Source: Catajapyx aquilonaris
Taxonomy: Eukaryota
DNA: 64,000 nucleotides
Assembly (NCBI GenBank): GCA_000934665.2
Contig: KZ538307.1
Location: 1-64,000, forward strand
Direction: 5' to 3'
Shown here: piece after piece, positions 10,509 through 43,500 of the stretch
How the letters are laid out: every line of letters starts with the position of its first letter
Numbering within the stretch: the stretch's first letter is position 1
Notes under the pieces: model-generated
Seen by the model: only the letters and a program-made list of their open reading frames with translations
Database searches by the model: none
Told to the model about the DNA's origin: nothing
Translations under genes and position numbers: made by a program

Positions 10509-13500
10509 TTTTTCATTACCCCACGGGGGGAGTTACATACTCCTTAGGGGGGGTGGGTTACCACCTTTGGAAATTTGTGTTGGAGCGGGTTTAAGAATAA
10601 TCTTAATTAGTATGCTCCAAGGGTGGGTGGGAGGGGATGTGCAAAGTGCAAGTGCAATGTCTCTAATCGTCATTTTGTGAACTCCCCCGGGTGGCTTAGT
10701 CTGTCGGAAATTGCCACCCGAAACGAAGCCAGAGATGGCCCAACTCTGCACGAAAGAAGGTGGGAACCCCGGGTGGGGATTGAACCCGGGACCTTAACTT
10801 CCGTGGGCGCGCGCGTTACCGCGGCGCCACTCCGTCTCCCCATGAAAGTGTTAAATTTGTTTAGCATCAGTTTTCTTTTTTTATTGAACAATGAACATTC
10901 CATATTTATTTTACTCTTTCACTCGACTTTTATGGTGATGTAATGAGCTTGCTAAAGTGCTCTGATAGACTCGCACACATGAATTGCTTCAGTCAAACTA
11001 GCCACTGGTTTGGGTTCGGCTTTCTTATTGGCTTGTTGTCTGGCAGGTAAAGGTGTGTGCACAAGCTGGCTAGAATAGGTCATGGCGAGATGGAGAAGCC
11101 AATTTTCATATGCCATTCTTCCTTGACTCCTTCACTCATTTTAAATGTTTCAAATACACTCAAAAATGCAATTTCTAGTGAGCTTGTGAAGGCACTTTAA
11201 GACGTGTGCAACATAGCACAGCTAACTTTGCTGAGTCCAAACTGTGAATACTTGTTACACGAAGTTCCAAATACATAACTGCTGTTATTACTACAGATTC
11301 AGTGTTAACATTTGCATATGTGAATGGTTTTGTTCTGTCTTAAAAACAGTCTCCAGTTACGTTATTCAGGACTATATTTGTGAAAGGTAGATGAGGGAAA
11401 ATGATAAGTGAAAGAACAATAGATGTGGGCTAAATTCCCATTGTCTAAATAGGATTTATTCCGAGAACAAGAGATCAAGGTTTCACTGTTTTGGAATTTG
11501 TGCTTAATTTTTTTTGTTGTCATGTATTGTATTAGGTTGCACCAGGTGGGATTTTTTTTATATAGTTCTCTATTAGGATGACTTAATGATTTGGACAATT
11601 GGCAATTTATTGCTTTTTGACACAAGGAACCGTAGAAATTATCATTTACAAGTACAGTACAGTATTGGTCATATATCGAGGCAACTTCCAGGGACATTTT
11701 CCGAAGCGGCAGAAGAAGGAATTGAAGATAAGCATACTTACAAGCCGGGCGAGCAAGATTCCTTCTTCTGCCACTTCGGAAAATGTCGCTGGCAGTTACC
11801 TCAATTTATGACCAACACTGTACCACTCATAAAGAATGGTACGACTCTATGGACAAAATGTTTATTCTGTTCCCAACCCGTGGCTCACCAGCATGTTTTT
11901 AGGGGTCATGAGGAAGGCTGGGAAAAGGCAATTAAAATCAAGAAAAAAAAGAAGAAAAAAACAAGGCAAAGTAAGAAAAGGGGAAATTCATCTCAAATCT
12001 ATGTAAGCATTGGACCAGGTTGAACATTTTGGTAATAAAAAATTTCGGAAAAAGTCTGGAGGGGGTCATATGGGTTGCCAGAGATCTAGGACAAGTTGTC
12101 CATAGTATCGCGACGAAGTCAGGTTGGGATTAATGCTGGATAGTCAGAATAAAGTTATTGTCTTAGGTTATCATGTTTGGTTTTGTCTATAGTTGATGAA
12201 ATTCAGAAGTGATGCTTGAATGGGTTTTCCAGTATTGTGTTGTTAAGATCCCAAATGTTGAATGTGCATTTGGTCTCTCAAGAGATATTGATATTGTTAT
12301 TCTACATGAACCTGCTCACTATTTTAGGACTCTGGCTGTGCTTGGGGCTGGTCTGATGGGTGCAGGAATCGTGCAAGTATCAGTGGACAAGGGGTACCAT
12401 GTCATCATGAAAGATATGACATTGCAAGGACTTGCTAGGGGGCAGGGCCAGATTCGTTCTGGATTTGATGCTGCTGTCAAGAGAAAGAAGTTCACCACGT
12501 AAGTAAAATGCAATTGGCACACTGCACATTGCCTATGAAAGCCATCTTACTGAGTTTGCTGTCTGCTCAGATGCAAAAAAAAAAGGGGGGTGGGGGGGTG
12601 GGGGGGGGGAGCAGGGTCCAATTTATTTGATGGAATATGGAAAGTCTCTGGAATATTCTCTTAATGATATGTATTTATGTGCGTGTGATTTATTACTATT
12701 ATTATTCCAGGGCTGAACGAGACAGGATCTTGTCTGGCTTGGATTCTACCTTGAATTATGATAACTTTAAAAAGGTGGACATGGTCATCGAGGCAGTGTT
12801 TGAGGATATTAATGTGAAGCACAAGGTGATTAAGGAGGTGGAGCAGCATATTTCAGAGCACTGCATATTTGCCTCCAACACTAGCGCATTGCCCATCACC
12901 AGGATTGCAGAGGCCAGCAAACGCCCAGATAAGGTTAGGAGTCATTAGATTTTTAAACTTCCTGTCACCTTGCCATCTGTTTGCTGTCGCTTCACCTGTT
13001 TCTAAGAGAAACGAAATTACTGTTGCAAGACTGTATTAAATCTAGCATCTCCTGCAATATTAATAGACTAAATACAATACTTGTCCTTATTAATACAATA
13101 CTTGTACTTATTTTGTCGAATACAGGTCATTAACTCATTATTCTAGTCTTGTTAGATTGTTCATAGGTTTTCAAAAGTTCTGTGCCCACAGAAAACCTCC
13201 TGAGAGTGTGGTAGTCATATTACTAGGGTAATATTTGTACCAGAAACATTGCCACCAAATTGAACTGAACCATTTTCCTCCAGGTAGTCGGCATGCACTA
13301 CTTCTCTCCAGTGGACAAGATGCAACTGCTAGAAATTATCACAACTGACAAAACCTCTCCCGACACTGCTGCTAGTGCAGTGCAAGTGGGACTGAAACAA
13401 GGGAAAGTAGTAATTGTGGTAAAGGATGGCCCTGGCTTTTACACCACGCGAATCTTGGCCCCAATGCTGGCAGAAGCTATTCGCCTCCTGCAAGAGGGAG

Positions 13501-19900: not shown

Positions 19901-21516
19901 GCGTACCGAGCTTCGGGGCTTTCCCCGCCCACCCGATCCCGTGGCCGCCTGGTGTGTGTAATTGTCTATGTGAATGCTCCTGTCGTCATCTGTGTACCTC
20001 CTTCCTCAGTACTCACCCCCATTAATTATAACCTACACCATTTATGCCTATCTAAACACTGGAGCAGGTTGGTGTAGGGGATAAGGAGCCCGCCTGCTAA
20101 TCAGGATGTCCTGGGTTCGAATCCCGTGGCCAGCAACCCTGACCATGGTTTTCTGTGGTTTTCCACGGTGTCCCCCCCCCCTCCAGGACAATTCCAGGGT
20201 CGTTTTCGTAAAAATAGGCCACAGCCGCTTCCTTCCTTCCCTATCCCTGGTCCCATCCAATGGTGGTAATCCACCCCCCTAAGGGTGAAAACGGCTGTAG
20301 CACAGGGTATGATAAATAAAACAAAGAAATTATGCCTATCTAAACAAGCACCCTTAGCCTCAGACATGTCCATGGTCCTCTTGACACATGACCATCTCAG
20401 CTTAACGCTAGCAACACTTATGCTTAAGACACTTATATTACCTCATTAAGTAGGATTTATAAACATTTCAAGAAAAGGGCAATGAAATATATTTTATGAA
20501 ATTAGAACATGGACTCACTTTTGTCGGGAGGATGGGAAACCTGGGTGCCCTGTAGTGGTCATGTGTGGTGCTGAGGTACAAAGATTTTGGCTCAGGTTCA
20601 TACTTGTGGGTGAGAACTTTTCCTTCTTCATTGGTTCGATCCACATCAGTGTGGCAGAGTGAAAATGTGTTGACCACGCTACGGCGTTCGGAATAGTCTC
20701 GCATGGACTTAATGTGGTGGATGCCCTGCTCCATGGCTTCCTGTGTTTGATCGAAGGTACACTCATTATAATCAGGGTACTTGTGATAATCTGAAGGAGC
20801 TTCATAGCACATTGTTTATAGGCCAATTAATCTACTTACACGAGTAGTTGGGGTGGGAATGTCATTGTAGAGAGTCCCCCAGCGATGGTAACTGGCTCGG
20901 AACTGGTTGATCTCCGGGGCAGTTTCTGCATCATAGTCTTTTGGGTAAGACTGCCTCACAACATGCCTGGAGAGAATTTTATGTTTCAAATTTGCTGTGT
21001 TCTGTATGTTGTGTAAGTTAGTTAACATCCATATCAGTAAAAACAATCCAGAAGCTAATAATTTCCACCCACTTCTGTCACTTCACCATCAAGTTTGGCT
21101 TTGAATTACACAAACACCATTATTAAGCCTGTTTATTAGGCTTTCAAGAGTAGCCTATATATTATTACCCTCAAAACTTGCACAAAGGTGTAGAAGCAAT
21201 TGGAAAAGTTTCAGCAAGAATTTTTCAGATATAAATGCAAGCTACCTTATGAAGCATATAAGTGCATAAGTGTTTGGTGCACACATTGTTAAAATAAGAA
21301 CAATATTAAGGAAGATTTTGGAAAAGGTTTGAAAGGTGGGTGTTTATTAAAGGATTCTACAGTGTCCTGTATTGAATGCCTGTCAGATTCCCACCTACCA
21401 CTCACATTGAAAGTACCTTACCATAAACTGTTTAAGACCCGTGGGTTGTATTTCATGTCGGGACTCCTGAGGAGGAGGGTCCCTGGCCTGTCTTTGTAAC
21501 ATGGAGCTGGTATCAT
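16986..21516 (-). CDS. CFAP95: Cilia- and flagella-associated protein 95 (C9orf135 family) homolog, 4 coding exons, about 239 aa
   Basis: complement(join(16986..17222,20519..20779,20840..20966,21422..21516)). Spliced N-terminus MIPAPCYKDRPGTLLLRSPDMKYNPRVLNSLWHVVRQSYPKDYDAE..SYHRWGT matches my recollection of the C9orf135 N-terminal block (ERKGSLTLRS..KY..PVL..WH..R.A.PK.YD.E..TYRRLGT); downstream STTHDHYRAP and LVYHKC..NKFMDE also align. Exon 1 is absent from the ORF track; the intron-2 boundary is slightly ambiguous. Confidence 0.8.
17888..18276 (-). mobile_element. tRNA-derived SINE (family B) in CFAP95 intron 3
   Basis: 16-bp TSD CAGAGTCTATGCAACT (17872-17887, 18277-18292); head GGGAGTTGTGGTGGCCAAGATGG..GGTTTGATCCC; (TAAAATA)n-like tail. 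Confidence 0.85.
18807..19345. mobile_element. Tc1/mariner-type MITE, 539 bp, with about 130-bp TIRs
   Basis: TA-CATGGGCTGTTTCATAAGTCATGG..TAGATGTCGCCCATAT / ATATGGGCGACATCTA..CCATGACTTATGAAACAGTCCATG-TA. Confidence 0.8.
20059..20329 (+). mobile_element. tRNA-derived SINE (family C, short form)
   Basis: 17-bp TSD TTATGCCTATCTAAACA (20042-20058, 20330-20346); A box TGGTGTAGGGG, B box GGTTCGAATCCC; A-rich tail. Confidence 0.9.
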
Positions 21517-25400: not shown

Positions 25401-26562
25401 AGAGAGTGGAAGTAAAGTGCATGAGGTTAAAATCCGCCAGTTCTTTTTTACTGGTCAGATGTATAGTAAAATAATTGCACTGTTGCACTTTTGAGAGCGT
25501 TGACGCCACACACGGCCGGGGTGGTGTATACTCCCCACTTTTGTAACGAGTTGTGCATTATTTATACTTGAGGAAACAACTTGTTGGAAGCAACATTCTG
25601 TTAAATAAATGCATCCAATAATACGTGTACTTACACATCCGTTCTTGTCTTTCCAGATCATGGTTCCTCTCCCACACTTGATTCCTTCTAACCAGTGCCC
25701 CCTGAAGACATTTCCAGTTTTGTAGTGCCGCTCACCCCATCCCTGCCTCATCCCGTTCATGAGGTAACCATCAAAGTAGTCTTGTGGTCCGTCGTATAAT
25801 ATTCTCCCCTGAAACAGGATTCAATAATCTTCATATCCTGTAGCTTCTACACTGCGAATGTTTCTCATGACGTTTCACTAACCTTCCCGTGTATCTTCCC
25901 GTGAGACCAATCCCCCGAGTATCCCCGTTTGTGGTCCTTAGTCCTGAAGGTCCCAAGACCGTGTTTGAGCCCATTGAGCACTACACCCTTGTAAGTACTG
26001 TGGTCATCCCACCTGTAGAAGCCACATCCGTCAAGTTGGTTGTAGTTGAGGTCTCCTTCGTATATGATCCCGTCATCCCACTCCAGTCGTCCATTCCCGT
26101 GCATGTACCCATTGACAAATGTACCCTCGTAGTACAGGCCAAGTCCGTAGTCCACACGAGCCCAGCCGTGCAAGTAGTTGTTCTCTAGCACCCCGCAGTA
26201 CCTGGAGGAATATGCAAGTGTTAACTTGGGTTCAACAAGTTCAGTATAGCCGTGAACTCTGACCTGGGGATCGTGTGCGGTGCGAGTTCCATCACGAATT
26301 TGGGCGGCAATCTCGGGGCCGGCGGTAGGTCGGATTCGGGTGTCACTTCAGGTATCAGCAAGCTAAGGGTAAATTCCAGGGAGGGGCTCCTCTCTTTGAT
26401 CGCTTCTTCGTCCTCTTCTCCGGGGTGGGCAATGGACATGAGCGATCCATCTTCGTTCTCTCTGCCTGACCCAGTACCTCTGCCTGTTCGACTGGTGACG
26501 CTGCCGCGTGGATCTGATGTCTGTCTGCCCTGCTTCTTTTGTGGTTTCGGTTTCGGCCCCAT
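22435..26562 (-). CDS. RSPH10B: Radial spoke head 10 homolog B-like MORN-repeat protein, 6 coding exons, about 796 aa
   Basis: complement(join(22435..22725,23171..23877,23954..24554,25635..25808,25883..26201,26264..26562)); GT-AG introns with consistent phases (2391 nt). Tandem MORN repeats (YEGTFVNGYMHGNG, YEGEWCNNLRQGSG etc.) followed by RSPH10B-like C-terminal blocks (NPFEELAFHQFLEYL, EFEINFLDFCDII). Confidence 0.85.
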
Positions 26563-26576
26563 TTTGCCTCTGTGTG

Positions 26577-26590
26577 GTTACCAAGCAATC
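26577..26590. promoter_or_regulatory. RFX X-box-like motif in the RSPH10B/CFAP65 divergent intergenic region
   Basis: GTTACCAAGCAATC is one mismatch from GYTRYY-N1-3-RRHRAC and lies 14 bp upstream of the RSPH10B ATG. Confidence 0.45.
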
Positions 26591-27352
26591 GACTATGGTG
26601 GTTGATCAACAATGGTTTTGCATTCTTTCGTCTGCTGGGCCCGTCACTCCTGACTGCAACAGGAGATTCATATGTCATTCAGAGATCTCACGGTTAGTAT
26701 GCCACCTGTCTTTTGCATTATGCTTCATTGTTTTCATTAGAAGTCATATAGTGATATTTCAATACTGATTTCTGCATATGGAAAGAAAGCTTAACGTAAC
26801 TTGGTACGGGATGAATCGGTGGACAAAAAACAACAAGCTGGTCTTATCCACCAGAAGAAAACTTTGGGAAGGCCACAGAGCGATTCTGAAATTAGCACCT
26901 TGTAGAATCTGATTTCGCCTTTCCATCACAGTGTCAAACGCGTCTAGTCGGTTGGAATTGAGAAAACAGGAGGAGTGTTTTTGCAAGTATAAAGGAGGTG
27001 GCAGCAGGCCGTATGCCAAAACTGGAATCTGGAATGAAGGCTGCTGGGTGCACAAGGTGGGGAGGGGGGGGGAGGGGTGTGGCTTTATGTTTGTTTGTGT
27101 GATTGGGCCAAGGATTAAAGCTGAGCACCGCCAAGGCATGCCTTGGACACTTATCTCCATGCAACAGCTGCTGCACAGGAATGGTCCACTTTAGACATAA
27201 CTTCGTGTCGTCGCTTGGCTTTAACTCCACGTTGCATCACACGCATTGTTGGAGTCCACGCAATTGCTTTTGTAGGTTTTAATCAGTCCCAGATATTCCC
27301 ATCTATTGATAAACATTTTTTTGGTTACATTTTTGGTCAGCTCTGAGCAACG

Positions 27353-30300
27353 ATGCAGTGGCCTTCGTACAAGGTGCCAAGAGCGGAGGAGCCTGCTGGT
27401 GTCATCATAGTGAGGTTTGACAATGTCATGGTGGAGCGTACTCAAATCAAGCACGTGTTCCTCGTCAATAGTCGCACAGTGAGTCCATCTTCTAAGACCA
27501 TGCTGCATCACCATAATGCGCACAATTTCATATGGTGCCAGGCGTTACAGTGAGGCTGAGGCATTTTTTGCATGCTTTTGTCCCCCCCTTTTTTGCAGGG
27601 CGGAGCTTGCAAAATAAGAGCAGTGAGGACCTTGAGGGGGGCGAAGGTTTTCGGGGGGTTGCATGAAGAGAGAAGGCCGGGACAGCCATCTCTTTTTAGC
27701 TGTCTGCATTTTGCTAACAGGAACATGTCTCTCATTTCAGACCTTAATGGGGACGATGGAGATTGCATTTTGAGGGTACATATAGTAACAGATGGCCTAT
27801 TTGTCTGGATAGGGAACTTAGCGACATTCCAAAATGCAGGTGCACATATATTTTTTAAAAAAATTACGGGGAGTCCGGTGGTTAAAAATGAATCACAGGG
27901 TGGCAGAAGAGAGGTAGAAAAAATGGAACATCAGAAGTGACTCCTGCTTGGCTCTCCTTCTTTGATACTTGGCAACACTAGTGGGGCTTTAGGTTTGGTT
28001 ATGTGGAGGCCAGAATAGTGCGCAGTGTGGAGTGAGAGGTGGCGAGAGGTAGGGGACACACTTACGTGTTGCTATAGTGTTTTGGCCGCTTCTCCCTCAG
28101 ATGTGTGTGGTGGTCACATGACCAGGTTGTTTTTACAAAAAAGTCTGGAGGATACAGTCTGCTGTTTCCAGCCATTCATGATAAAGTAGGGTACACTGCA
28201 CTGGGTGTTTGCGACCGAAATATGCTTCCTTGCTGTTGGCCTCTGAAGATTTTCTATGATGTCGATATACTGTATAGAATAAAGTATTTTGGGGAATACT
28301 GAAATCGACCAAATAATATAAAATTTAGCACGGACAAATAAAACCATTAGCGTAAAAATGGCACATTTTCTAACTACAAAAAAGAGGGACTTGTGCCTCA
28401 ATGGGACTATCGAACAAAAGTCTAATTAACATGACAACCGAAGAGATATAGCGATTCTAATTATAGCGGAATACAACGTTGACCTGGGGAGACCTACATT
28501 CGAGTGCAATCTCTTCCGCTTAAAAAAACATCCTTGAAATCCTATAGAATATGTAGAAATCTCTCGGAATTCCCTACAAAATTCTTCGAATGATGGTCTT
28601 CTCAGTTCCCTATAGAAGTAGCTGTTGTGTCACCCCACTGTGTAGCACCCAAGCCCACGACCATGGTGCGTCACATAATTATACTCGCACCTGCACCTCC
28701 TGAACAAAAGGGGACGTAGTGGTGTATGGAAAGCATATCTTCGACAGCATGCAGTGCACGTGCCAGAAAAGCATGGCCTCGAAGCACGTCCACCCACGCC
28801 CCAGTCTGTAGCACCGCCATAGTTAAAGGGGGGGCATTCCCCCGTTTGACAATGCGTCTTCGAGACTTGCCAACGTTTTGCTGGGTGCAAAATCTTGGCA
28901 TCGGCGCAAATGGTTTCGCGGGTAAAGAAGTAAATGTCCGACGCTTGTTGCTACGACGGTATGTGGCGTAATCGGCAAGGATCGACTCAAACGACGAGGC
29001 GGCTTCCGTTGTGGTAACGCGTCATGCCTTAGTCCCGTTTGACTAAAGAGGAAACAAGTGAATCCCCCATACCTTTTTCTTAACCCCCCCCCCCCCTTCC
29101 TCCTGATGCTTTTTGTAATCAGAAGCTCCTGGCAAAGACACAAGCGCTTCTTCCGGGTGTACAGTCTCGCCTCGAAGAAGCAGCTTTGACTAATGATGTG
29201 ACGTCGCGTTTCTTCACTCGTCTTCCGGACGCGCGCCCAAAATGCTTCCAGCTAACTTTTTTTTAAATCCTCTCCGGCCCGGCTTATAAGCATAAATATT
29301 AAACGTAGTCAGGTGTGGAGGTAAGATAGTGCAGGTGGCGCCAAAGACAGAGTTATGAAGTAAACAAATTCATCAAGGGCTTGGTTGGTTGGGTCTGCAT
29401 TGCTTGGGTGTGGGTAATGCTTGGCATGCTCTTGTCTAGTTTTTGCAATTCGAAGCTTGTCCTCTTTTTACGTTCTGTATGCGGGTAATTCTCATTTTTA
29501 AACAAAGATTAATTAATAGGAAGATATTTAGGAAGTTTGGAGTGTATAAAATGAGGGCAGGCACTAATAGTTGTTCTTAGAGTGCAGTGAGGGTCTGTTT
29601 GTTCTTATCATACTTTGCTGCTGTCAAAGCCAAGCCGAAGCTGTAAACATCGGTGTGCGCGGAGAGCTTTGCGTTGACTCTTTAGGATATCCTTTGGGTA
29701 AGATTACTTCTGGGGCTGAGGGTAATGAAGTGGTTGCCAAAATATGTCAATTTAAGTTTATGTTGCACAGAGAACACGTGGCGTCTGGTAACTTTTCTTT
29801 TTAGCAAAAACAAACAATGGGACGGTTTTTAAACAATATTTCCGATTCCAAAGAAAACGTATAGTTGTACGTGTTAGTGGCGACGTTGTGACTATAAATG
29901 TGATTGCAAAATTACAAAGAATTTGATACATACACATGTATAGGGTAGGATACCAAAGGTGCATGAATTTAGCCCATTCATGTTGTTGTATATTTATGAC
30001 TCATACGCATGCCACGTTTCCACAACTTGCAGATGAAACGACTTGTAAATCCATAGTGCTAAGTATTTCTGTAGAGAAAAGCAATTAGCAATGAGTAAGG
30101 AGTGTGAATCCAAAATGGATACTGCCCGAATACTTATGGCCTATGGCCAGCGGCATGATGGGTAACATCTGAGCGGTGACATGCGCTCTGAGTTAACCAT
30201 TCTGGCATTCTTCTGATCTCGAAAGTCAGATGATACAGATGGTCGCCTTGCTGAGAGTCAGGCCAATTCACGGTCCAGAACTTGTGATTATGCAGATTTA

Positions 30301-33300
30301 ACGGATTTTGTCAGTCACTAATGAATGGAGCAATGAAGAATTGCAATAAATTAGGCGCGCATGGTTGTAACATGCTATATATCTTAAATAATTGCTCAGG
30401 GAAAATGCCTTCTTGACAATAATGCTTGGTAGTAGTACGTAGATGTATTTTTAATGACATTTTTATTTTCCTCACATTTGTGCCAGGTTGGAGATTGCCT
30501 TGATATACACTACAGTATGATTCCATTGTACTATACAGTATGATTATTTGGCAATTAAATATAATATGTACACAGTAATAATAATATAATATGATAGGTA
30601 ATAGAACCCTGCCTGTGTTTCAGAACAATGGGGACATATGTAATAGTAATACCACACTCTCAACTACAATATTGGGGTCATCCACTGAATGCGCCGTAGA
30701 GCAGGTAAAGTCAGCACACAACATCAGTCATGCAGCGCCAATGCAATGAACAAGCAATGGTGTATGATGCACAATAACAGCCCCAAGTGTACTGTACATG
30801 GAACTTGTACAAATATTTCCCCTAGTCTTTGTCACTCCTTCACAATGTTGTGAAACTTCTCCACACATTTAGTTATCTCTGCTTCCTGGCAAATGTATTG
30901 CAGAAGCTGCATTTTTTGAAGAGGCGGTTTCCAAGAACGTGCTATTAATGGTGGCCACACTTACGCTCTCATTATCAGTTTTCCCCCCTTTTCATACTTA
31001 AAGTTTTTTTTAAAATCCCACTCGAGGCTCATATCCTGCACTATCCGAAGAGTTAAAACCGTTCGACACCCTTCGGCGTGAAGCGAAAAGAAGATGAAGT
31101 GTACTGGCCCCATTTTACTCCTCTCCTGCGATGCCTGCAAAAATAGGGTCCCCCCCCCCTCTCTACATATCCCCTGCCTTCCCTTCCTTACACACCACAA
31201 CACTAGTGGTCCCGGAGCCTGCTAAAAATTCGGCTTCCATCTTCTCTCATCCCCCCATCCCCAGCCGTGTCTGCCCCCACACAGCCCACTCTAGACTTGG
31301 CCTAGGTATACACCCCTCTTTTGCTATTCTGGGAAGCCAGCTAGGCATTCCAGGCCTGATGTTGAAGCTAGAAGGAAGGAGAAGGTGGAAGGAGGATGTA
31401 CCTGATCGACGATAGAACCTGCGAACATCGATATGGAAGGAGGAGGAAGAGGAGGAGTCTGATGTACAGGTGCTGCTCTTGCTACATACTTATCATGCTC
31501 ACGGGGATCCTGACCCGGAAGCACCACCAGGCACCTCAAGTCTAGTCGAGTGAGTGTCGTGCCATGTATCTATTGATGTTTTTTTTTCTTTTTTTTTCTG
31601 AGAAGTATGATTTTCCATGCGATGGGTACTCGAAATGTTGTAGTAGAGTGCACGTTATGGTTGACGTCATTTTTCTGGCGCTTTTGCAGATATGTGCAGC
31701 ACTCCAGCAACGGTCTTAGCCAGAAACTATTTGTTAGAAATTCATCTTGTACGTTGAATAAGATTTAACTTGTGTGAGTTCTAGGTATGTGGTAAAACCA
31801 TTTGAAGGGCTAATAGTAAAATATCACATATTCATGAATAGTTCTGACTTCATTGATTTGTCGTACATTATCATTAAATAACATACGACATAAAACTATT
31901 AACACTGCAGTGTGCTTGTACTGAGAAGTATATAAGAAAAGTCTATAGTTGGAGTACTTCAGTTAATTGGTACACGACTGGACACAAAAATAGTAGGCTA
32001 TTCACGTATATTTCGTAACGTTGGGGTGGTGAAACATTCTGGAACTGATTTTACGTTCTTTTTTCCGGAGTGATGTGCAACTCAAGTGTTGAAATAGGAG
32101 TGCAATGCAAAAAGTTACACATGATGAAAAACATATGGGGTTGATACCAGTCTATGCCACATTTTTGCGCCTTTTAGATCAAACCAGAGTTTGATAACAA
32201 AATTTTTGGAAACGTAGCATTCCGCTTCGTGAGTAACTTACCACTTTTGTCTAGGCATTCTCACGAGCCTTCTCATAAAACTCATGCCGCATTTGTTATT
32301 TTAAGTAGGCCTATAGAGTACCAATAATCCAACAAACCAAGTTCCGCATTGTTGAGGATAATTTTTCTTGTGGCTTGATTCAGATCGAGACCGGTACACT
32401 CTGTCCGGATCACGACCCGCTGGAGCAGATTGGATGGGAGACCTACCATGGTCAAGGAGTGAATCCTCGTGTCGTGGCCCTAGTGTTCTTCGTGTGACAC
32501 ATGGATGTGTGGTGGTGGTGGTGGCACCTCCCCTTCCTCCTGATGGCGTTGGGTACCACGTACTCTGCCCCACCGGACAGTCCCGACCAACCGCAGACAA
32601 CGCGAGCCCCTGGAGAAATGATATCTCTTTGCCACAACTTCACCAACGGAAACGACGACCTGTACGAGTTCTACTCCCCAAACTACCCCGGGGAGTACCT
32701 TCCGAACATGAGCTGTCACAAAGTGATTACAGCCCCCGAAGGCCACGTGGTCAAGGTGATCTTCATGGACGCGTTCAACGTGGAGCTGAGCGAAGGATGC
32801 CAGTACGACTACCTCGAAATTAAGGACGGTAACTCGGGTTCGGCTGTGGAGCTGGCACCAAAGTTGTGCGGACATGAGTTCCCGGATTTCATCCAGAGCA
32901 CGGATCGGTACATCTGGCTGCATTTCCACTCGGACAGGGAAGTGGGGTACACGGGGTTCAAGGTGCGCTACGAGTTTGTGAGGATTGAGACCACCAAAAT
33001 GCCGTCTGTGGAAGGGTGCAGGTACACCGTCGAGGGGTACTCTGGGAACATTTCCAGTGAGGATATCAACGGGTCGATGATACTGTTCACGGAGGAGACC
33101 AACGCTCCTCTGGACTGCATATGGACCATTCAGGTCCGCGATGGCTGGCAGGTCAGGCTTAAGTTCTTCCTCTTTAAGCTGCAAAAGCCCAACGAGTGCC
33201 AGAACAATTTTTTGCACTTGTACGAGCAGAAGGAGGAGGTGACGGACCACATTGTCAAGTTTTGCGGAACCATTGCTGAGAGTAAGAGCAGCACGTCCAA

Positions 33301-36300
33301 CGCGATGCAAATGAGATTCTTTGCCACGAAAGAAGCACTTAAGTCAAAATTTGAGGTGAGATCTGAGGTATTGCCAGGTGGGAATGTTTGTATACACTGC
33401 GGCCATTACCAGCTGTCACCGACACATCGTTCCTATCGTTACACAGTCCCTTGGAGAGATCCTGTTTCCTTTGTAATGACTGGCTTTAGTTATGCGGTCT
33501 TTATGAGGAATGTCCGTGTCGATATTCGACTATTTGGCACCCAAGGGGTTAACCACTTCGGTTCTCCGGTATACACCTGCAGTGGTACTCCCAGGTACTC
33601 CTTAGGTACTTTACTCTTTGGTACTCCTGGGTTCTCTTTGAATTTGGTACTCCAGTGTACACTTTACAGTCTAGTGGTTAACCCCTTATTACAGAGGGTC
33701 AGGTTACGGATTACGCGAGGAGCGAACTTTGCCATCATATCATGTAGTCATAAATCTTTCTGAGAGATAATATTTGCAGTTTATATTTGGAATACATTTT
33801 TAATAACTCCAAATAGTGTGTGCAATAATGCATTTTTGTTTTTTTGTGGTTTAATTTCTCACTGACGAGTTATGATATTCGAATGCTTTGCTTGTGGCAT
33901 TATAGGTTTTCTAAGAACGTCGGCGACAGCTAGATACAAAGCAGCGTATACACAGTAGTATGTAATACGAGTATTGCAATTTGTATTTTAAAGCAATATT
34001 TTAATCACAATGTGTCCAAGTTGTTAGTTGATGGATCATGCTACAGAACGCTTATTTTGATGTGCGTCTACTGGCACAATTAATTTATTGTTATTGTGAT
34101 TTTTGTGAAACTGCTGATATATACGAGTTTTATTTCCCATTGTGCACTTTTAAGGGTCAACATTATTTTATTTTATTCATATATACATTACACATCACCT
34201 GAGGTGGTATGTCTATGTTTAACTGGAATTTAGCAAGCACTCATTTTAGTTATTTGTTATTTGGGCTTATTTTAATACCGTACACTTTATACAGACTAAC
34301 GAGTAATTGCAAGCCAGGAAAATACGTATAATTTGTGCCCAGTTATTTAGAATGGCGTAGGACCGTATACCACGAATAGAATGACTAGCTTGTTCGCTGT
34401 GGTCTCTGGACAGATCGTGTTAGTGTGTGTTTATTCTCAAAAATGTTGTAGGCTATATTACTACATGAATTCACGAACTGAAAAGTGTTAACGCTGTCCA
34501 GTCGAAGATTTACTGTGCATATTGTGCAGTCCACCTTATAAAGCATCTCTGACAAATGGGATTACTTGAAGTGAAAAGATGGTCCTACACCAATTTCAGA
34601 GGTGTTTTAGGGAGACGGAGTGGCGCCGCGGTAACGCGTGCGCCCACGGAAGTTAAGGTCCCGGGTTCAATCCCCACCCGGGGTTCCCACCTTCTTTCGT
34701 GCAGAGTGAGACCGTCTCTGGCTTCGTTTTGGGTGGCGATCCTTTCACATATGCCACCCGGGGGAGTTCACAAAACGGCACATCAACGACATTGCACACG
34801 CACTTTGCACATCCCCTCCTACTTACCCTTGGAACACACTAAATACTATCTTAGTATACCGGTTCCACCCAAATGGTGGTATTCCACCCCCCTAAAGGAA
34901 ATGTAACTCCCAATGGGGTAATGCAAAAAAAAAAAAAAAAATTCAGAGGTGTTTTACATCCTGTACAAGACATTTGTCGACCGAAGTTACTTCATTTTGG
35001 TTGGGATTGTGGATAAGACTAAAATAAGGTCGGGGGTCACCTCTGCTTTAAAAACATATAATATGTGGACGACAACATCATGGAACTGCATGGATGTGTC
35101 TTACCAATATAGAGATGTGCCATCCAAATGTAATGACACTTATGACAAATCACTGTTCCATTATATTCATTTTCTTTCTCCCTCTCATCAAAATAATTTT
35201 AAGGAGTATATATCAGGAGATTACTCTAATTGAGTTTTAAAGTTAATCATCTTTAAAATACTGTGATGATCAGCTTCTACTCATTTGCGTTTATGTCCAT
35301 GATTATTATTTTCTCTTATCCGATAGTTTTAAGAATGACTAATCTATACCAAGGCTTGGTTTCATATTGTACATAACCATCAGGTCCTATTTATGTCATA
35401 CGAGTAATTGAAAAACTTATCCATATGCATTTTATGAGCTTTGAAAATCCCGATATGAAAATTATAATGTAGCATTTTTTTTCAACTTGATTTTGCCAGA
35501 CACCGCCCTGAAACTGAAATTATTTGTGTGTTTTTTTCTGTTGCTCCGAGGTAATATGGGAGGGAGGGAGAGTCCACCTATTGTACGTAGAAATAGGCCA
35601 ATAGGCACATGCATGAATTAAAATATTTGATGAAAAAGATGTGCAATGATGGTGGCCTAGACAAAGGATATAACCCAAAACATTATGAGATTTATCCTTG
35701 GTGCATGCAACCATCATTGCACATTTCACATGATATTATTTTTAATAATACAAAAGTGGTGTGGGGCTCCGAGGTACATATAGTAACGGGTAATTATTTT
35801 CGACACTTTTATAGCGGTGTGTAGAACTTTGCAACTCAGTCGATAGAAAAACCGAGTGTCAGCACTTATTTTTCTGCAGAAAGCCAAAAGTAGTACTTTT
35901 AATCAGTAACGATTTAAAATTAGGGACTAGCACTAGTTAGTACAGTACTTTTATTCAATCAATGCCTGAGTTGATTCAAAGTTTATGTGGCATGTGGAGT
36001 ATAAGGTATACTGCATATTATACTGTATATAGTAAGTTATTATTTTAAATCTAACACCTGAACGTTCTGTGCTCAGGACTAAGGGCTGTCAATAGCTACC
36101 TTGTGCAGTACATATAATTATGTGATGTTCAAATCTCGCTAGAAGACAGAAGATGTGTTCATTACCTCTTATTCAGCCTTATGTATCAGTCATCAAAGAT
36201 ACAACCTGATGGCTTTGATGTTGGAGCTTTTTAATCCAGTTCATATTGTTTAGAGCTTATCGTGCTAGACAGCGGCACTGTCTACGCGATTCAAAATCTC

Positions 36301-37479
36301 GCTCATTTCATGTGAACACTGTGAGCGATAACTACGTGCCATGTGATACGATTTTGTGCCACATGAAGTAGAGCAGCACTTTTCATGTGGCACCCTCACG
36401 AGATGTGTGTCAGCTCTGTGAATGCCCTCTTTAATAAAGTTATGAGGCACAAGAGGAGTCTTTTCATGAGATTCATCAAGGCACACATATACGCAGCACC
36501 AAGTAGAGCTTGCTGACGTACTGTTATGTACACAGCGGTACGCAGTCATATGAGTACATTATGTACTGTATAGCCTTATGGCCAACAGTAAAATAATTAC
36601 TGGAGCCCATTGAGACATTTGTGCAGTAGTGAAGATAGATCAGATCAGTACAGTATGTTTTTGTTGTCTTCTTGCTGCATTTGAGCATCTATGGTCTACT
36701 CCACCTAATTATACTCCGTCTCTTGGCACTTAGGCAGTGCACCAAGCTATACGAGTAAAAATACATTTAGGCCATCCCCCATCCGTGCTATGGCATTCGA
36801 ATCGACCACTCATTGTGAATGGGAATCTGATGTGCTAAACTAAATACTGTAATAAGCATACTACTCCGTATTACATTACAGTAAAACTATATCGGCTAGG
36901 TTTCCTAGAGGCCGCTGTTGAATAACCAAATCATGTATCATAAACAAGTTTGGCAAATCACGTGAGCGTGATTAGAGTAGACTTTTTCATGTTTACGGCT
37001 ATTGTCCCCATCGTCCGTTACGAGATTGAGACCGAAACTAACAATAACTCATTTTCGGCCAAAAGTGGACTTACCCTCTCCCCCCTTCCTCATCCTACCC
37101 CCAGACCGCCCCTTTCCCATTTAAAAAATCTATCCTAGCAAACTCATCTTTTAGACCTTTTTCATCAATCGAAAAAAGTCTTATAGCTCTGTCCGTCCGT
37201 CCGTCCGTCTGTTGACAGGTATCAGGGGGTTGGAGGAGGAAGGGAGGCAATGGTGATCTGGCGGAGGGGGCGCGGGCGGTCAGGGGTAGGGGATGGCGGG
37301 GGAAAGGGGCGGTGGAGGTAGGGGGCAGCCAGGGGGAAGGTGCGGATAGAGTGAACCCGGAACCCGAAAATCGCAAAAAAGTCTTATACTCGTAGCACGG
37401 CTCTGTCTGTCTGTCTGGTCTGGTGGGAATGGGCTGTAAGGGTAGAGGGTGGTGGGGGCAGCCAAGCGGATACCTGTCC

Positions 37480-37518
<39 letters not shown>

Positions 37519-40500
37519 TGGCCGTTCTATAAGACTTTTTTTCTCGAAAAAGTCTAAAACATCGCTACATATTGTTAAGTGCTGGTAAAATGTGTAGTAA
37601 TCGTATGCAAAATTATCATTTGGTGTAACATATAATATTATATTGTGCTTTACGACTGATACGACATTTCTTGTCACCTTCAGGTGATGTTTACGGCATT
37701 CCGCAACAAAAGCAAAGCAACCGAGAACTGCACCGACGACGAATTCGACTGCGAAGACAACACGTGTATCAGTGGAGCTCTGAAATGCGACGGCCCCAAG
37801 AACTGCCAGCACGAGTGGGACGAGAGCAAATGCGAGAACAAGAACGTGAAGAGCGACTTCGACCTGGCCAAGACCAGCAACCTGGTCATCCTGATCCTCA
37901 CCCTGCTAATGGGCTTCGGCATGCTCTTCGCCTTTGGCTTCCAGTGTGTCCGGAAGCTCAGGCAAGACAGGGAAGATATCCAGGAAGAGGTTCGACGCTC
38001 CAGGGAGCTCCTGGAGGAAGGAAGCGTCAGGGTGTCGGCTGCAGCCTCGGTACCAGCGCCGGTACCGTCGCAAGAGACGCTGCGCACCACCGGAGGAGGC
38101 AGCATGGCCAAGTACACCAACGGGGAAGTGGTGCTTGCGAACAGTTACAGTGCGGGTAACGCGGTGGACCAAGAGGTGACCGTGTACGGAGACTACGAGG
38201 AAGACGATGAGGAGGAGGAGCGGTGCGTCGAGATGCGGGACAACGCGTGCCAGACGCGAGACAGCCTGTGGGACACCAACTGGGACGGAAGCACCAAGGA
38301 GAGCGTAGCGTCCAAGCCTTCGTCGTCCTCCCCGGCGATACCACCTAGAATACCGATGGGCCGCAGGTTGAGCGAGAGGCCGCCCATACCCACCTCGCAG
38401 CAGGCCCACCACCGGCCGTCGCTTCCGACGACTTCGGCGACAACCGCGCCCACCGAACCGCGTACATTCCACGCCGAAGCCAAGATTGAAGTGGCCCCGG
38501 GACAGCAGCGCCCGTGCAGTTTAGATTCGAGCAAATCTGCTCCTGACGTAGTCGTCACTCACTGACCTTACCACACACACTACAACAAGTACACTAATAG
38601 TGCGGCTTATATTTATGTGCATTTTGCTCAGGTATACACGCAAAAGTTTAGGCAGTGTCGAAGGGGATTGAAAAACTAAGGTCCAACGGTTTGACTCTTT
38701 GTGCTTTTCATACAGTACCTGTCCTTACCAGTCTGGAATAAACCCGGGTGTAAACATGTGTCCGTTTTAATGTCCCCCCCTGCTGTGTTGTTTCAGCGCT
38801 CTGTGACCTTCACGATTGAGCATGATGGGAAGACACGTCCACTGGACAGGCTGTTCCGGTATGCACCAAACACCGGTGTCATCCCTCCGAAGAGCAAAAC
38901 TGACATCAAGCTGTCCTACAAGCCTCGCTTTCCGGACATGGAAAACCACGAGTTCTACAAAATCAATTGCAGCACCGGAAATTACTTTCACGTATACCTT
39001 TCAGGGAACTGCACTGGTAAGACTCTGACCACCCCACTGTCGCCTTGTAACACCACTGCCTTCTCGACCCACAGGACCACAGGTAGAGTCCCAGGACAAA
39101 GTTGTGCGATTTGGACACAACAAAGACGGGTGCGTGACAAGCAGGGTGATCCAGCTGTCCAACTTGTCCGAAACTCCGGCCAACTTCTACTTCGACGTGG
39201 ACCCCTTGTACAGTGCCTTCCGACTGGAGCCCACTTGGGGCCTCATCAAGCCCGGAAAGCAGCAACGCATAAAGGTCACGTTCCTTGGGAAGAAACCACA
39301 CGTGTACGCTAGGAAAGTTGTCTGTCTGATTCATTACCAGGTGAGTGTGCATAGGTTACATAGGCCTAGTACCAAGTTAACTGGATCCGGTTCTGTCCAT
39401 GTTGACATGCAATAAGATGGCCTACAAGTTTGCATATTATTGCTCTCATACGTTACGTCGTATCTAGACAGGGTCCACTTTACTTGATGTGCAATAATGG
39501 CTCTAGTGGGCTTGGCCTGATAATCTCCTGAGTAATAAACAAATCAAACCATAATTGATCATCTTGACATACACACTTCTTGCAGCCACCTATTTCCTTC
39601 CACTTCGTGTATACCAATACGAAAAAGTTGCTTCTGGATAGAATAGTCATCCCAGTTCATGAAATTGAGTTGCCAGAGCAGGAACGGTATGAAGCATATC
39701 TGGCCGATTCTTTGAGCGCATTTCAGAATCGAACCAATGTGTCTCTGCGAACCAGATTCTTGCAGTTTGGATTATGTGAAAAAGAAAAGGTAGCGTATGT
39801 CCAGCTAAAGGTTACAAACCTGTCTGATAACATGGTGACGCTCCTGTGGAATACAGGTACGATTATGATGTCCTGATATTGTTTGGAACTGGTTCTAACG
39901 TTACGTGTTCTAGTTCCGGAGCACGTCTTCCGAGTGTCGCCTGAAGCCATGTCTATTCCTCGGATGAACTCCGTGGAGTTTGAGGTGTCATTTAAGCCCC
40001 ATACCAGTGAAATGTTGTACAGCAGCGAAATTGAAGGGTACGTGCACCGTGCATGCAAGCACTGCCAGTGTTACCAAGGACGTGGAGACTTGTGCCTCTG
40101 TGCGGCTTGCAATCTTGATTCAACTGGCAAACTCAAGTCGTTGCCTTCCTGCATATCCTTCCGAGCTGAAGGTGAGGAATTATATTTTATCCTCGCATGA
40201 ATAGGCTGTCACAAATTAGGGGGTATTTTGGGTACTGGAACCATTTTTTTACCTGTCGTCTAAAAGCTGAAAGTAATAATGTTAAGATTATATTCTGCGC
40301 ACATGCTGTGCACAGGGTGTTCCAAGTTCGTGGGTAGTTTTTAGTTATAACTAATATCGTCCGAAGTAGTTATTTTTGTGTAGCTTGTTGAGCCGATCCA
40401 GCGGGTCCCTCATTATCACGCCTCATTATTATTACTATCAGGTGGTCGAATGTAGCAGTGGCTATAGAATATAGGGTATACCTGGACTGGGGCGCAACAG

Positions 40501-43500
40501 GCTACAAAAACATAACAGCTTCGAGAGAAATTTCCTATAACTAAAAGGACTAATATACTTGGAACACCTCGTATTATTTAAATATTGCAATTATTTATTT
40601 ATTTATTTTTTTAAAATTACACCCTTGAAGCCTTCAGGCTTATATAGGGGGGAGGTTTTTCGACCATTTTCAATCTCTCCGGTGCTAGGATGGAGGGGGG
40701 GACAGTGGTGCAAGTGCAATGTCTCATGGCGGAGGCCGTGTGCAGTCCCCCAGAGGGCTTAGGTTGAAAGACGACCCTCTAGGTGCGGGTAAGAGACCTC
40801 CCACAAACACCGCACCTCCTCCAGTGTGGGACATGGATAGGAAAGGTAGGAAGCGGCTGTGGCCTACGATTAGGAAACAACTCCGGTATTCACCTGGGGG
40901 TGACCGTGGGAAACCACAGAAAACCACGGTCAGAGTTGCCGGCCTGGGGATTTGATCCCTGGACCTCCCGATTTGCAGTCGGATACCAAATCCCCTCCGC
41001 TACCACTGCTTCGGTAAATATTGCAATTATAACAACAACAATGGGAAAATGCGGGAAGATGTGGCATGGGCTCAAACTCGAAAGTTGACAAATCAAGATG
41101 AAACCAATTATTTGTATGATCCGAATCCATGTGTGACTTTGGATTATTTTTAATTATTCAAATCCCCGTCCAGGTCATTCATGTCTAAAATTACTCCAAG
41201 AGGGATCACCTTTGGCTGAAGTGATTTGAATACAGGCCTACTGTCAAAAATGCATTTCTTACACTATTCTGATGAGTTTATCCTAAAAATTTATGTGACA
41301 CATCATAATGTGCCAGTTATCAATCTCTGATTTCAGGTCACAGTTTCAGGCCAGGATGCGAACCTTGGGCCCCTCATTTCATAATGAGGCCGAATGAAAT
41401 TTGGATGCCGCCCATGTATCCCGGATCAAATAGTGCTACTACTCTACTTCTCTCACCTAAGAGTGATCTTCCAGTCATGTTTAATTTTCAACTACCCCCT
41501 GACAGGTAACAATGACACTGACAATGAGCAGTTCACATACCGTACATATTGTAGGTACTGTATTGTACTGCAGGCTAGCATTGGGAATGTAAGCTAGATT
41601 GTTGACATTTATGGTAGCCAGTATTATACTGTATTTCAGATAATAAAATGACATCTTGATTTCTCAGCCCTTACACGATTAAGCCTTTGGAAGGATTGGT
41701 GATGGGAGGTCCCCAAGTCATCGTAGTTAACCTTCAACCAAAGGTGTCGAGCGAAACCACAGTTTATTTGGACAGATGTCGCATGCAGGTCAACGTCGTG
41801 GAAGAAAACGCCATTTGGTTCACTATACGCGGAGAAGTCCTTCTGCCCTTTGTAGATTTTGGAGAGAAGGGCATGGTTCTCTTTGACGACACCATGGTCG
41901 ATTCAGTGAGGAAAATTATGGTTCCTGTCATCAATACTACTAGAGAAAATGTGTGGTAAGCACTCCTATTGCAGCCTTGACCAAATATAATAATCAGTAC
42001 AACTTACTAGATGATACGTAATTATTTGATAGGTTTAAAGTTATTCATCCAGTGGAGGACGAAGAGAAGGATGAAAATTACGTAGCCGAGAAAAAGAAGG
42101 AGGAATTCACATATGTGTTTTCCGTTTCGGATCTGGAAAATCAGTATTTCCTGAAGCCAAATCAACGAATATTTCTGGAGTGGGTGTTCCAACCCGCTTA
42201 TGCAGAAACATATCAGCAAGTGCGACCATTGCGAGTTTCTTTCTTGAGCAACCCTGATGCTACATTTCTTCCAACGTTGATGAAACCAGACTGCATTCAT
42301 ACGCAAAACGTAATGGTCTCTTTGATGGGAAGAGGAATCAAGTCAGATCTCATTGTAAGGCATTATATCAAGCTGTCATCCAACCCACACAAACAATAAG
42401 TTATTATGTCATATATTTATTTTTAAATAGGGTGACCCAAAGCAAATGAACATGGGCTACTTGACTATCGGAAAAGAGTTTACAGAAAGATTGACCGTGA
42501 CAAACGAGAGCGACTGCGATATGGCCTTCTTCCTGGAAGTAACGTACTTACAGCCCTGCGAAACGTTTGACCACCAAGTGGTTCGCGCCGACGTGGTCAT
42601 TTCCCCTGCGGAAGGTAAGCTGGCCCCAGGAGAATGGACACCAGTGATGATGACCTTACGGCCCACTGAGGTTGGCACTTGCCACTTCCAAGTGTCGTAC
42701 AGAAAAGTCGGAGGGTCACTCAATCCGGTGACCAATTTCAAGTTCATCGGTGCAATACCTTACATTCAGATAACTGACATTGTGTGCGACGGGTCTGGAA
42801 TCATCATAGGAAGGTCACGGCTGTGGTCCTTGCTCGAGCTCAACAGGCTGAATGAGACGTGGAGAAAATTGCAATTTCCGGATAATTCAATGTTCGACAT
42901 TAAAATTCCGGGAGCGGTGGAGGGCACTGGTGACCTCCACATCAAGATGCGAATCACTAACCCGACAAAAGTACCTGCTGAGTGGGTAATGAAAGTGCCC
43001 AGGGTGAGACACGAGAGGGTGGAGAATCCATACTGGTACATCCCACCCCTACAACAGTTGTCTCCAGAGGATAATAGGATACAAACTATCCTGAAGGCCA
43101 ATATAATCGAAGTTGGTCCTGGAGAAGGTATCCTACAACCTTCCGAGTCCGTTGAAGCAGTTATCAAGTATAGGTTCACGCATGCCGGAGAGCATGACGT
43201 GCCCCTATCCTTCGGCGTCAGGCACCACAATGTGATCAATGCGCGTTTGGTGGGGAACACTATCCCGAAGACGACTCCGCTAGTGCAGGTTTTCACCAAA
43301 GAAGTGAACTTGTACGACGTCTCCATAGAGGATGCGGATCCTCCCATTCAGATCTTCTGGTTGTTCAATCCGACGCACGAGGAAGCTCCGTACAAGTTTC
43401 TTGCCAGCTCCTTCAAGAGCAGGGCCAAGCTGGACGTGGTGTGCTGCAATCCTGCAGGAACCGTCCCGGCACTGTCATGGCACCCAGTCAAATTCCGATT

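Follow-up and report, generated by a model that had tools for sequence, protein, structure and literature searches.

The closest described arrangement is viral: the internal poly(A) site of AAV5, (pA)p, reportedly characterized by Qiu, Nayak and Pintel (2004, J Virol 78:83). This site lies in an intron with its downstream element inside the 3′ splice acceptor, and its use is chosen by promoter, P7 and P19 RNAs ending at the site and P41 RNAs being spliced (PMC11359079). At the locus considered here a guest poly(A) signal and a host acceptor are predicted to overlap in the same way. AAV5 differs in being a virus with one compact transcription unit whose behavior was tested by experiment, whereas our layout is predicted from sequence. 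In AAV5, moreover, it is the RNAs started upstream that terminate at the site, whereas here the internal gene would end there and RNA from the upstream promoter would read through.

Partial likenesses are found in cellular genes. In the Drosophila pairs ytr-eIF6 and xl6-nop5, the poly(A) site of a same-strand guest falls within an intron of the host, which ignores it while the guest uses it (PMC3890989). Hosts do so in a donor-dependent manner and without overlap, deletion of the donor restoring use of the site, and the Discussion of that study weighs antitermination against reaching the acceptor in time as the basis of the bypass (PMC3890989). Its Results and Discussion report no overlap between a guest site and a host acceptor; the guest described below also differs from those of the fly pairs in being a two-coding-exon gene with phase-matched splice sites. 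Flies have 727 nested genes in the same direction as their hosts (PMC3890989), but 71% of fly nested genes run antisense to the host and, of those in the same direction, 73% are single-exon (PMC3814207), so that an intron-bearing, same-strand guest belongs to a minority. In C. elegans SL1-type and Ciona operons a poly(A) site likewise adjoins the splice acceptor of the next gene, but there trans-splicing acts on a polycistronic RNA, and neither a host intron nor an upstream cis donor is involved (PMC12582326). Mouse H13/Mcts2 resembles the present case in that a nested gene alters host elongation and intronic polyadenylation; it differs in that the effect is described as transcriptional interference at the nested promoter, with no overlap of a host acceptor (PMC13309782). 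In the open-access papers searched, we found no report of a cellular nested gene with such an overlap, or of this locus. A layout known from a virus is thus predicted here in an animal nested pair, the synapse gene Neto within the cilia gene CFAP65.

The window analysed is a stretch of 64,000 nt from a 286-Mb assembly. Besides Neto and CFAP65 it contains what we take to be HADHA and an RSPH10B-like MORN gene (minus strand), named by reading frames and, for the MORN gene, by Pfam. Short conserved-looking coding exons lie at about 20420-21030 on the minus strand, the same as the RSPH10B-like gene and some 1.4 kb downstream of its stop.

The host gene was delimited with a CFAP65 profile made from 87 homologs of 1400-2100 aa, taken from a set of 155. 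Its first coding exon (27353..27478, +, 42 aa, with an in-frame TGA upstream at 27344-27346) was recognized because the frame 27347-27550 matches profile columns 273-300, a match that is weak alone (E 0.26). The second coding exon (38797..39016, +), an Ig-like domain by both Pfam and the profile, matches columns 299-372 and directly continues exon 1 without a gap. Among 1245 upstream phase-0 GT donors, the join 27478 to 38797 ranked first at 58.2 bits (mean 40.0, SD 1.0; exon 2 alone 41.0), and 38797 was the best of four in-frame AGs (58.4 bits). An exon start at 38716, which would use the AG at 38714..38715 (+), add 27 aa and read AATAAA as Asn-Lys codons, was rejected because it scored 46.1 bits, 12 below 38797; a CFAP65 gene starting without an intron after Neto was rejected as well (39.5 versus 58.2 bits). 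Intron 1 therefore spans 27479..38796 (+), 11,318 nt, from a GTGAGT donor at 27479 (+, phase 0; here D1) to an AG at 38795..38796 (+, phase 0; A2). The model runs to 1177 aa over nine exons with no stop, has collinear Ig-like domains with Pfam Ig_CFAP65 matches, and leaves the last exons outside. In CFAP65 intron 3 a possible micro-exon at 39472-39514, starting GPLYLM, gains about 3 bits on the profile and has no clean GT donor that keeps the acceptor at 39586.

Exon 1 was missed by tblastn with five long homologs and by Pfam on 12 upstream frames, and profile columns 1-272 were not found within 26300-38700; a likeness seen by eye at 26769-27190 was rejected. Thirteen of the 155 homologs begin at columns 180-330, and the named short ones among nine looked up, or their clusters, are from beetles or sawflies, the named clusters starting near column 270. 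At its N-terminus CFAP65 here is short by about 270 profile columns, a trait shared with the named beetle and sawfly proteins, and looks like a shortened insect form; on this ground the source of the DNA seems to be insect-like. It stands head to head with the RSPH10B-like gene (ATG 26562, minus), the start codons being about 790 nt apart. Between the two lies an X-box-like (RFX-type) motif at 26577..26589. The X-box pattern has two matches in the 64-kb window (26577 and 20126), and we presume the one at 26577-26589 to be a candidate ciliary promoter element shared by both genes; it suggests a ciliary promoter for CFAP65.

The Neto coding sequence, 32501-38565, lies wholly inside CFAP65 intron 1 on the same strand, as read from homology and open frames. 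Coding exon A (32501..33355, +) encodes a hydrophobic N-terminus, by eye a signal peptide, followed by two CUB domains, and is 40% identical to Eurosta Neto (E 1e-59). It is followed by a GTGAGA donor at 33356 (+, phase 0; D2). The acceptor of the last exon is the AG at 37682-37683 (+, phase 0; A1), and its coding part (37684..38565, +) specifies an LDLa domain, a transmembrane segment and a cytoplasmic tail ending at the TGA 38563-38565. The two exons give 579 codons without an internal stop and contain in full the CUB-CUB-LDLa-transmembrane architecture that defines the Neto family (PMC4408064). Among this locus and seven other CUB loci, the best match to Eurosta Neto is the one in the window; the C-terminal end bears a weak likeness to the last Eurosta Neto residues (E 2.4). 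Searches with exon B found no homolog among 7054 candidates, atlas matches staying under 0.9, and a metagenome scan with the same exon gave 480 pattern matches, none of which was confirmed; a look through an index of scanned DNA likewise turned up no stretch resembling this one. Drosophila Neto has 10 shared exons plus tail exons (PMC4408064); Neto here has two coding exons only, few introns being in keeping with the reported bias among same-strand nested genes.

A search of the host intron upstream of Neto revealed no clear core-promoter motif or Neto promoter. The strongest donor in that region, at 29320 (score 10.5), follows sequence with raised CpG (28.2-29.4 kb) and may mark an untranslated first exon of Neto. 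By eye, a tRNA-derived SINE occurs in two copies, at 34620-34830 (+) in the Neto intron and at 10640-10845 (-), and an element resembling an inverted repeat, with TCTG/CAGA runs, occupies 37090-37570, just 5′ of the Neto last exon.

From the Neto stop to CFAP65 exon 2 there are 231 nt (38566..38796, +) that would hold both the Neto 3′ UTR and the end of the host intron. Scanned for 20 hexamer-type motifs, this gap contains a single AATAAA, the candidate Neto poly(A) signal, at 38737-38742 (+), 172 nt past the stop and 54 nt from coding exon 2, and no close variant besides; the other motif matched, ACTAAT at 38593, is no poly(A) variant. A genome-wide DNA search that skips common words matched the gap to itself alone, and a repeat origin was rejected; an Rfam scan over 27400-39400 gave no matches. 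Two acceptor-like sites occur in the Neto 3′ UTR, AG 38630-31 with CTAAT upstream (stretch 38594-38631) and AG 38714-15 (stretch 38690-38715), both in phase 0 to exon 2 and at the 23rd and 28th percentile of control acceptors, respectively.

In metazoans AAUAAA precedes the cut, usually at CA, by 10-30 nt, and a U/GU-rich downstream element follows (PMC2874999). By this spacing rule, cleavage after AATAAA 38737-42 is predicted at the CA at 38755..38756 (+), 13-14 nt past the hexamer and within the canonical range. The downstream element of a canonical site has its counterpart in 14 GU/UG dimers at +12..+52. On the host side, the candidate branch point is TTAAT at 38767..38771 (+), the only YTRAY in the last 97 nt of the intron (38700-38796), with its predicted branch A, 38770, at -27, and the pyrimidine tract at 38772-38794 is 78% C+T. 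The 40 nt at 38755..38794 (+) would therefore be dual-coded, the GU/UG-rich element lying on top of the host branch point and tract. A preliminary description of this DNA had pointed to the only AATAAA after the Neto stop, 54 nt from the exon-2 boundary, and this is borne out as long as "only" is confined to the host intron, the next copies on the plus strand being at 39534, 41642 and 44842. It had also placed both the GU-rich element and the cleavage site on the branch-point and polypyrimidine region of the host; the element is indeed there, but the likely cut, at CA 38755-56, falls some 14 nt 5′ of the branch A.

Does this proximity call for an explanation? The AATAAA could be there by chance, or be used without any interplay with the acceptor, the GU tract being merely acceptor sequence; Neto might then end weakly here, at a non-canonical signal, or downstream, for example at 39534 through CFAP65 exons 2-3. 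Controls came from 78 introns (62 that lie on other contigs, in chaperonin and myosin genes, plus 16 from the window) and from 23 further acceptors. The chaperonin and myosin set drew on 116 of the 130 matches and gave 75 adjacent pairs, of which 69 were resolved and 62, scoring above 8, were kept; the extra acceptors are 23 of 33 eligible ones in proteasome and Ras loci, of which 40 out of 56 were used. All control exon boundaries are predicted, not RNA-derived. An AATAAA ending 10-65 nt before the exon was found at 7/78 and 0/23, or 7/101 control acceptors (95% CI 3-14%), two of them in CFAP65 itself, at 39586 (46 nt, AATAAA 39534) and 41668 (20 nt, AATAAA 41642). At intronic density an AATAAA is expected by chance in about 15% of 231-nt stretches, and one hexamer placed uniformly in the gap would have a chance of about 25% of falling in its last 10-65 nt. 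The proximity of AATAAA and acceptor alone is ordinary and within chance.

Six features were compared at AATAAA sites, and GU/UG content stood out. The 14 dimers in the 40 nt downstream of AATAAA 38737 rank first among 210 AATAAA sites (median 5), and none of the 101 control acceptor tails of that length reaches this number (median 6). In a set of 213 independent AATAAA sites, the number reaching the focal count was 2, 9, 5, 14 and 3 in five windows; for the 101 control tails it was 1, 2, 4, 0 and 0 at five tail lengths. A mononucleotide shuffle of the same letters gave p=0.0003 for the excess. Dimer counts at the host intron's four other AATAAA are 1-5; the copy at 41642 has 2, and the alternative at 39534 only 3. 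The GU/UG richness of the shared 40 nt thus exceeds that of the control tails and of most AATAAA sites. It fits a downstream element overlying the branch point and pyrimidine tract, and to judge from its composition it favors a true dual-use element. Together with a CA at the expected distance from AATAAA, it stands against mere coincidence.

Several observations limit this reading. GU/UG content was singled out from six features tried. Downstream of the first AATAAA past the stop of eight other genes in this genome there are 0-7 dimers, so that 8/8 are not GU-rich, and CFAP65's own has 5; GU content is accordingly unproven as a mark of real sites in this species. Either many of these GU-poor control ends are false sites or the species needs no GU elements. 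Within the 0.6-2 kb read at 22 control gene ends, AATAAA was present in 14 and absent in 8, and in only 5 did it lie within 231 nt. With a near AATAAA missing from many gene ends, the true end of Neto could lie at another place or depend on a non-canonical signal. Proteins of the CELF and TDP-43 type also bind UG runs, so the excess need not serve CstF. A "GG before AATAAA" context, seen at three chaperonin ends and the focal site, was not repeated at any of eight further sites. Weighing the ordinary proximity and the many distant or absent signals against the GU excess, the CA and the poor alternative at 39534, we consider a neutral coincidence somewhat unlikely, though a serious contender.

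Splice-site strengths bear on what each RNA could do with the shared segment. By matrices built from the 78 introns, D1 (27478) is at the 40th percentile of control sites, D2 (33355) at the 81st, A1 (37684) at the 92nd and A2 (38797) at the 41st; with a score of 12.2 against 7.5 for A2, A1 outranks every other acceptor of that intron, and the best GTs in the Neto last exon reach the 15th and 22nd percentile. The reading we favor, at roughly even chances, is that AATAAA 38737 is the Neto poly(A) site and that the outcome is set by the promoter of origin, not by a free local race. On Neto RNA, acceptor 37684 and AATAAA 38737 would define the last exon, with a cut near 38756. D2 would pair with A1 and the acceptor at 38797 would be left without a donor: as the donors in the Neto last exon are all weak, A2 would be partnerless and the poly(A) site usable. 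On CFAP65 RNA, D1 would still be unpaired, and intronic sites would be held down by the general rule that splicing prevails over polyadenylation. Human reporter experiments show intronic polyadenylation to be repressed by a functional 3′ splice site and to rise when that splice site is weakened or blocked (PMC13322065). Here the GU-rich element of the Neto signal would overlie the CFAP65 branch point and tract, the same 40 nt serving both genes; as the downstream element is finished no sooner than the acceptor, the site would have no head start, and U2AF/U2 could cover it.

Such suppression would be needed anyway, because CFAP65 RNA first meets the stronger in-frame acceptor 37684 and four other intronic AATAAA. 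The harder task of the host would be to skip A1, which prior splicing of the Neto intron or exon skipping might accomplish; the overlap does not account for this skipping. Fly Neto acts at the neuromuscular junction (PMC4408064), and taken with the X-box-like motif of CFAP65 this suggests that the two genes may seldom share a cell. Under the promoter-of-origin reading the overlap would be a host safeguard or a by-product of tight packing rather than a regulated switch, a part of the reading that we hold with the same divided confidence. Anatomy, homology gene models and the GU excess come from the sequence; use of the site, the branch point, the two promoters and factor binding are deduced from them.

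The preliminary description had gone further and proposed a compact binary switch at the shared ~60 nt. Regulated splicing/polyadenylation switches of the e(r)/SXL or IgM type yield both products from one pre-mRNA at a regulated ratio. Here CPSF/CstF and U2AF/U2 would compete on one pre-mRNA for the same 40-60 nt, the choice between ending, as Neto or truncated CFAP65, and splicing on being made by factor levels or by a UG-binding protein. The physical overlap, the GU excess and the middling host sites (donor at the 40th percentile, acceptor at the 41st) are consistent with this, as are the repression of intronic polyadenylation by 3′ splice sites (PMC13322065), the blocking of CstF64 at the downstream element as a common mode of control (PMC2874999) and the AAV5 precedent (PMC11359079). 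Against it, Neto RNAs have no usable donor and hence a single outcome open to them, fly hosts bypass nested sites that have no such overlap, and a switch between intronic ending and splicing was seen in just 16 of the 70 fly genes examined (PMC3890989). A regulated switch therefore seems improbable to us. With weak Neto donors, a stronger acceptor upstream at 37684 and the example of the fly hosts (PMC3890989), the shared segment is probably not where the choice falls; what survives of the earlier picture is its anatomy, namely a nested same-strand Neto, a sole hexamer and a GU-rich overlap, but not the local switch.

A choice could also be made upstream, with CFAP65 exon 1 spliced to 37684 and the RNA ending at the poly(A) site 38737 as an alternative last exon. 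The product would be an in-frame 335-aa membrane protein joining the CFAP65 N-terminus to the Neto LDLa-TM-tail, and the reciprocal join, 33355-38797, would fuse CUB-CUB to CFAP65. The four splice sites share phase 0, an open frame runs through either crossed join (336 and 358 codons tested), and no acceptor in the host intron scores higher than 37684. A phase match is, however, common by chance (roughly one in three by our estimate), each gene in its normal form is intact and fits its family, and selection against such mis-splicing is a reported rule (PMC3814207). We regard this alternative as very unlikely.

More ambitious than the promoter-of-origin reading is a selected cellular dual-code element, in which the 40 nt would be kept both as a CstF element for Neto and as a U2AF/U2 site for CFAP65, with mutually exclusive binding; we think this a long shot, on a par with the regulated switch. 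If true, such a dual-code lock would be an AAV5-like device in an animal gene and, with the four phase-matched sites, could make Neto, CFAP65 and possibly in-frame chimeras exclusive by cell type. If the site is unused or the overlap inert, the locus would be no more than a densely packed nested gene of the usual kind. Same-strand nesting puts functional poly(A) sites into host introns in hundreds of cases; here site and acceptor emerge together and share bases, so that this locus could separate steric occlusion from timing.
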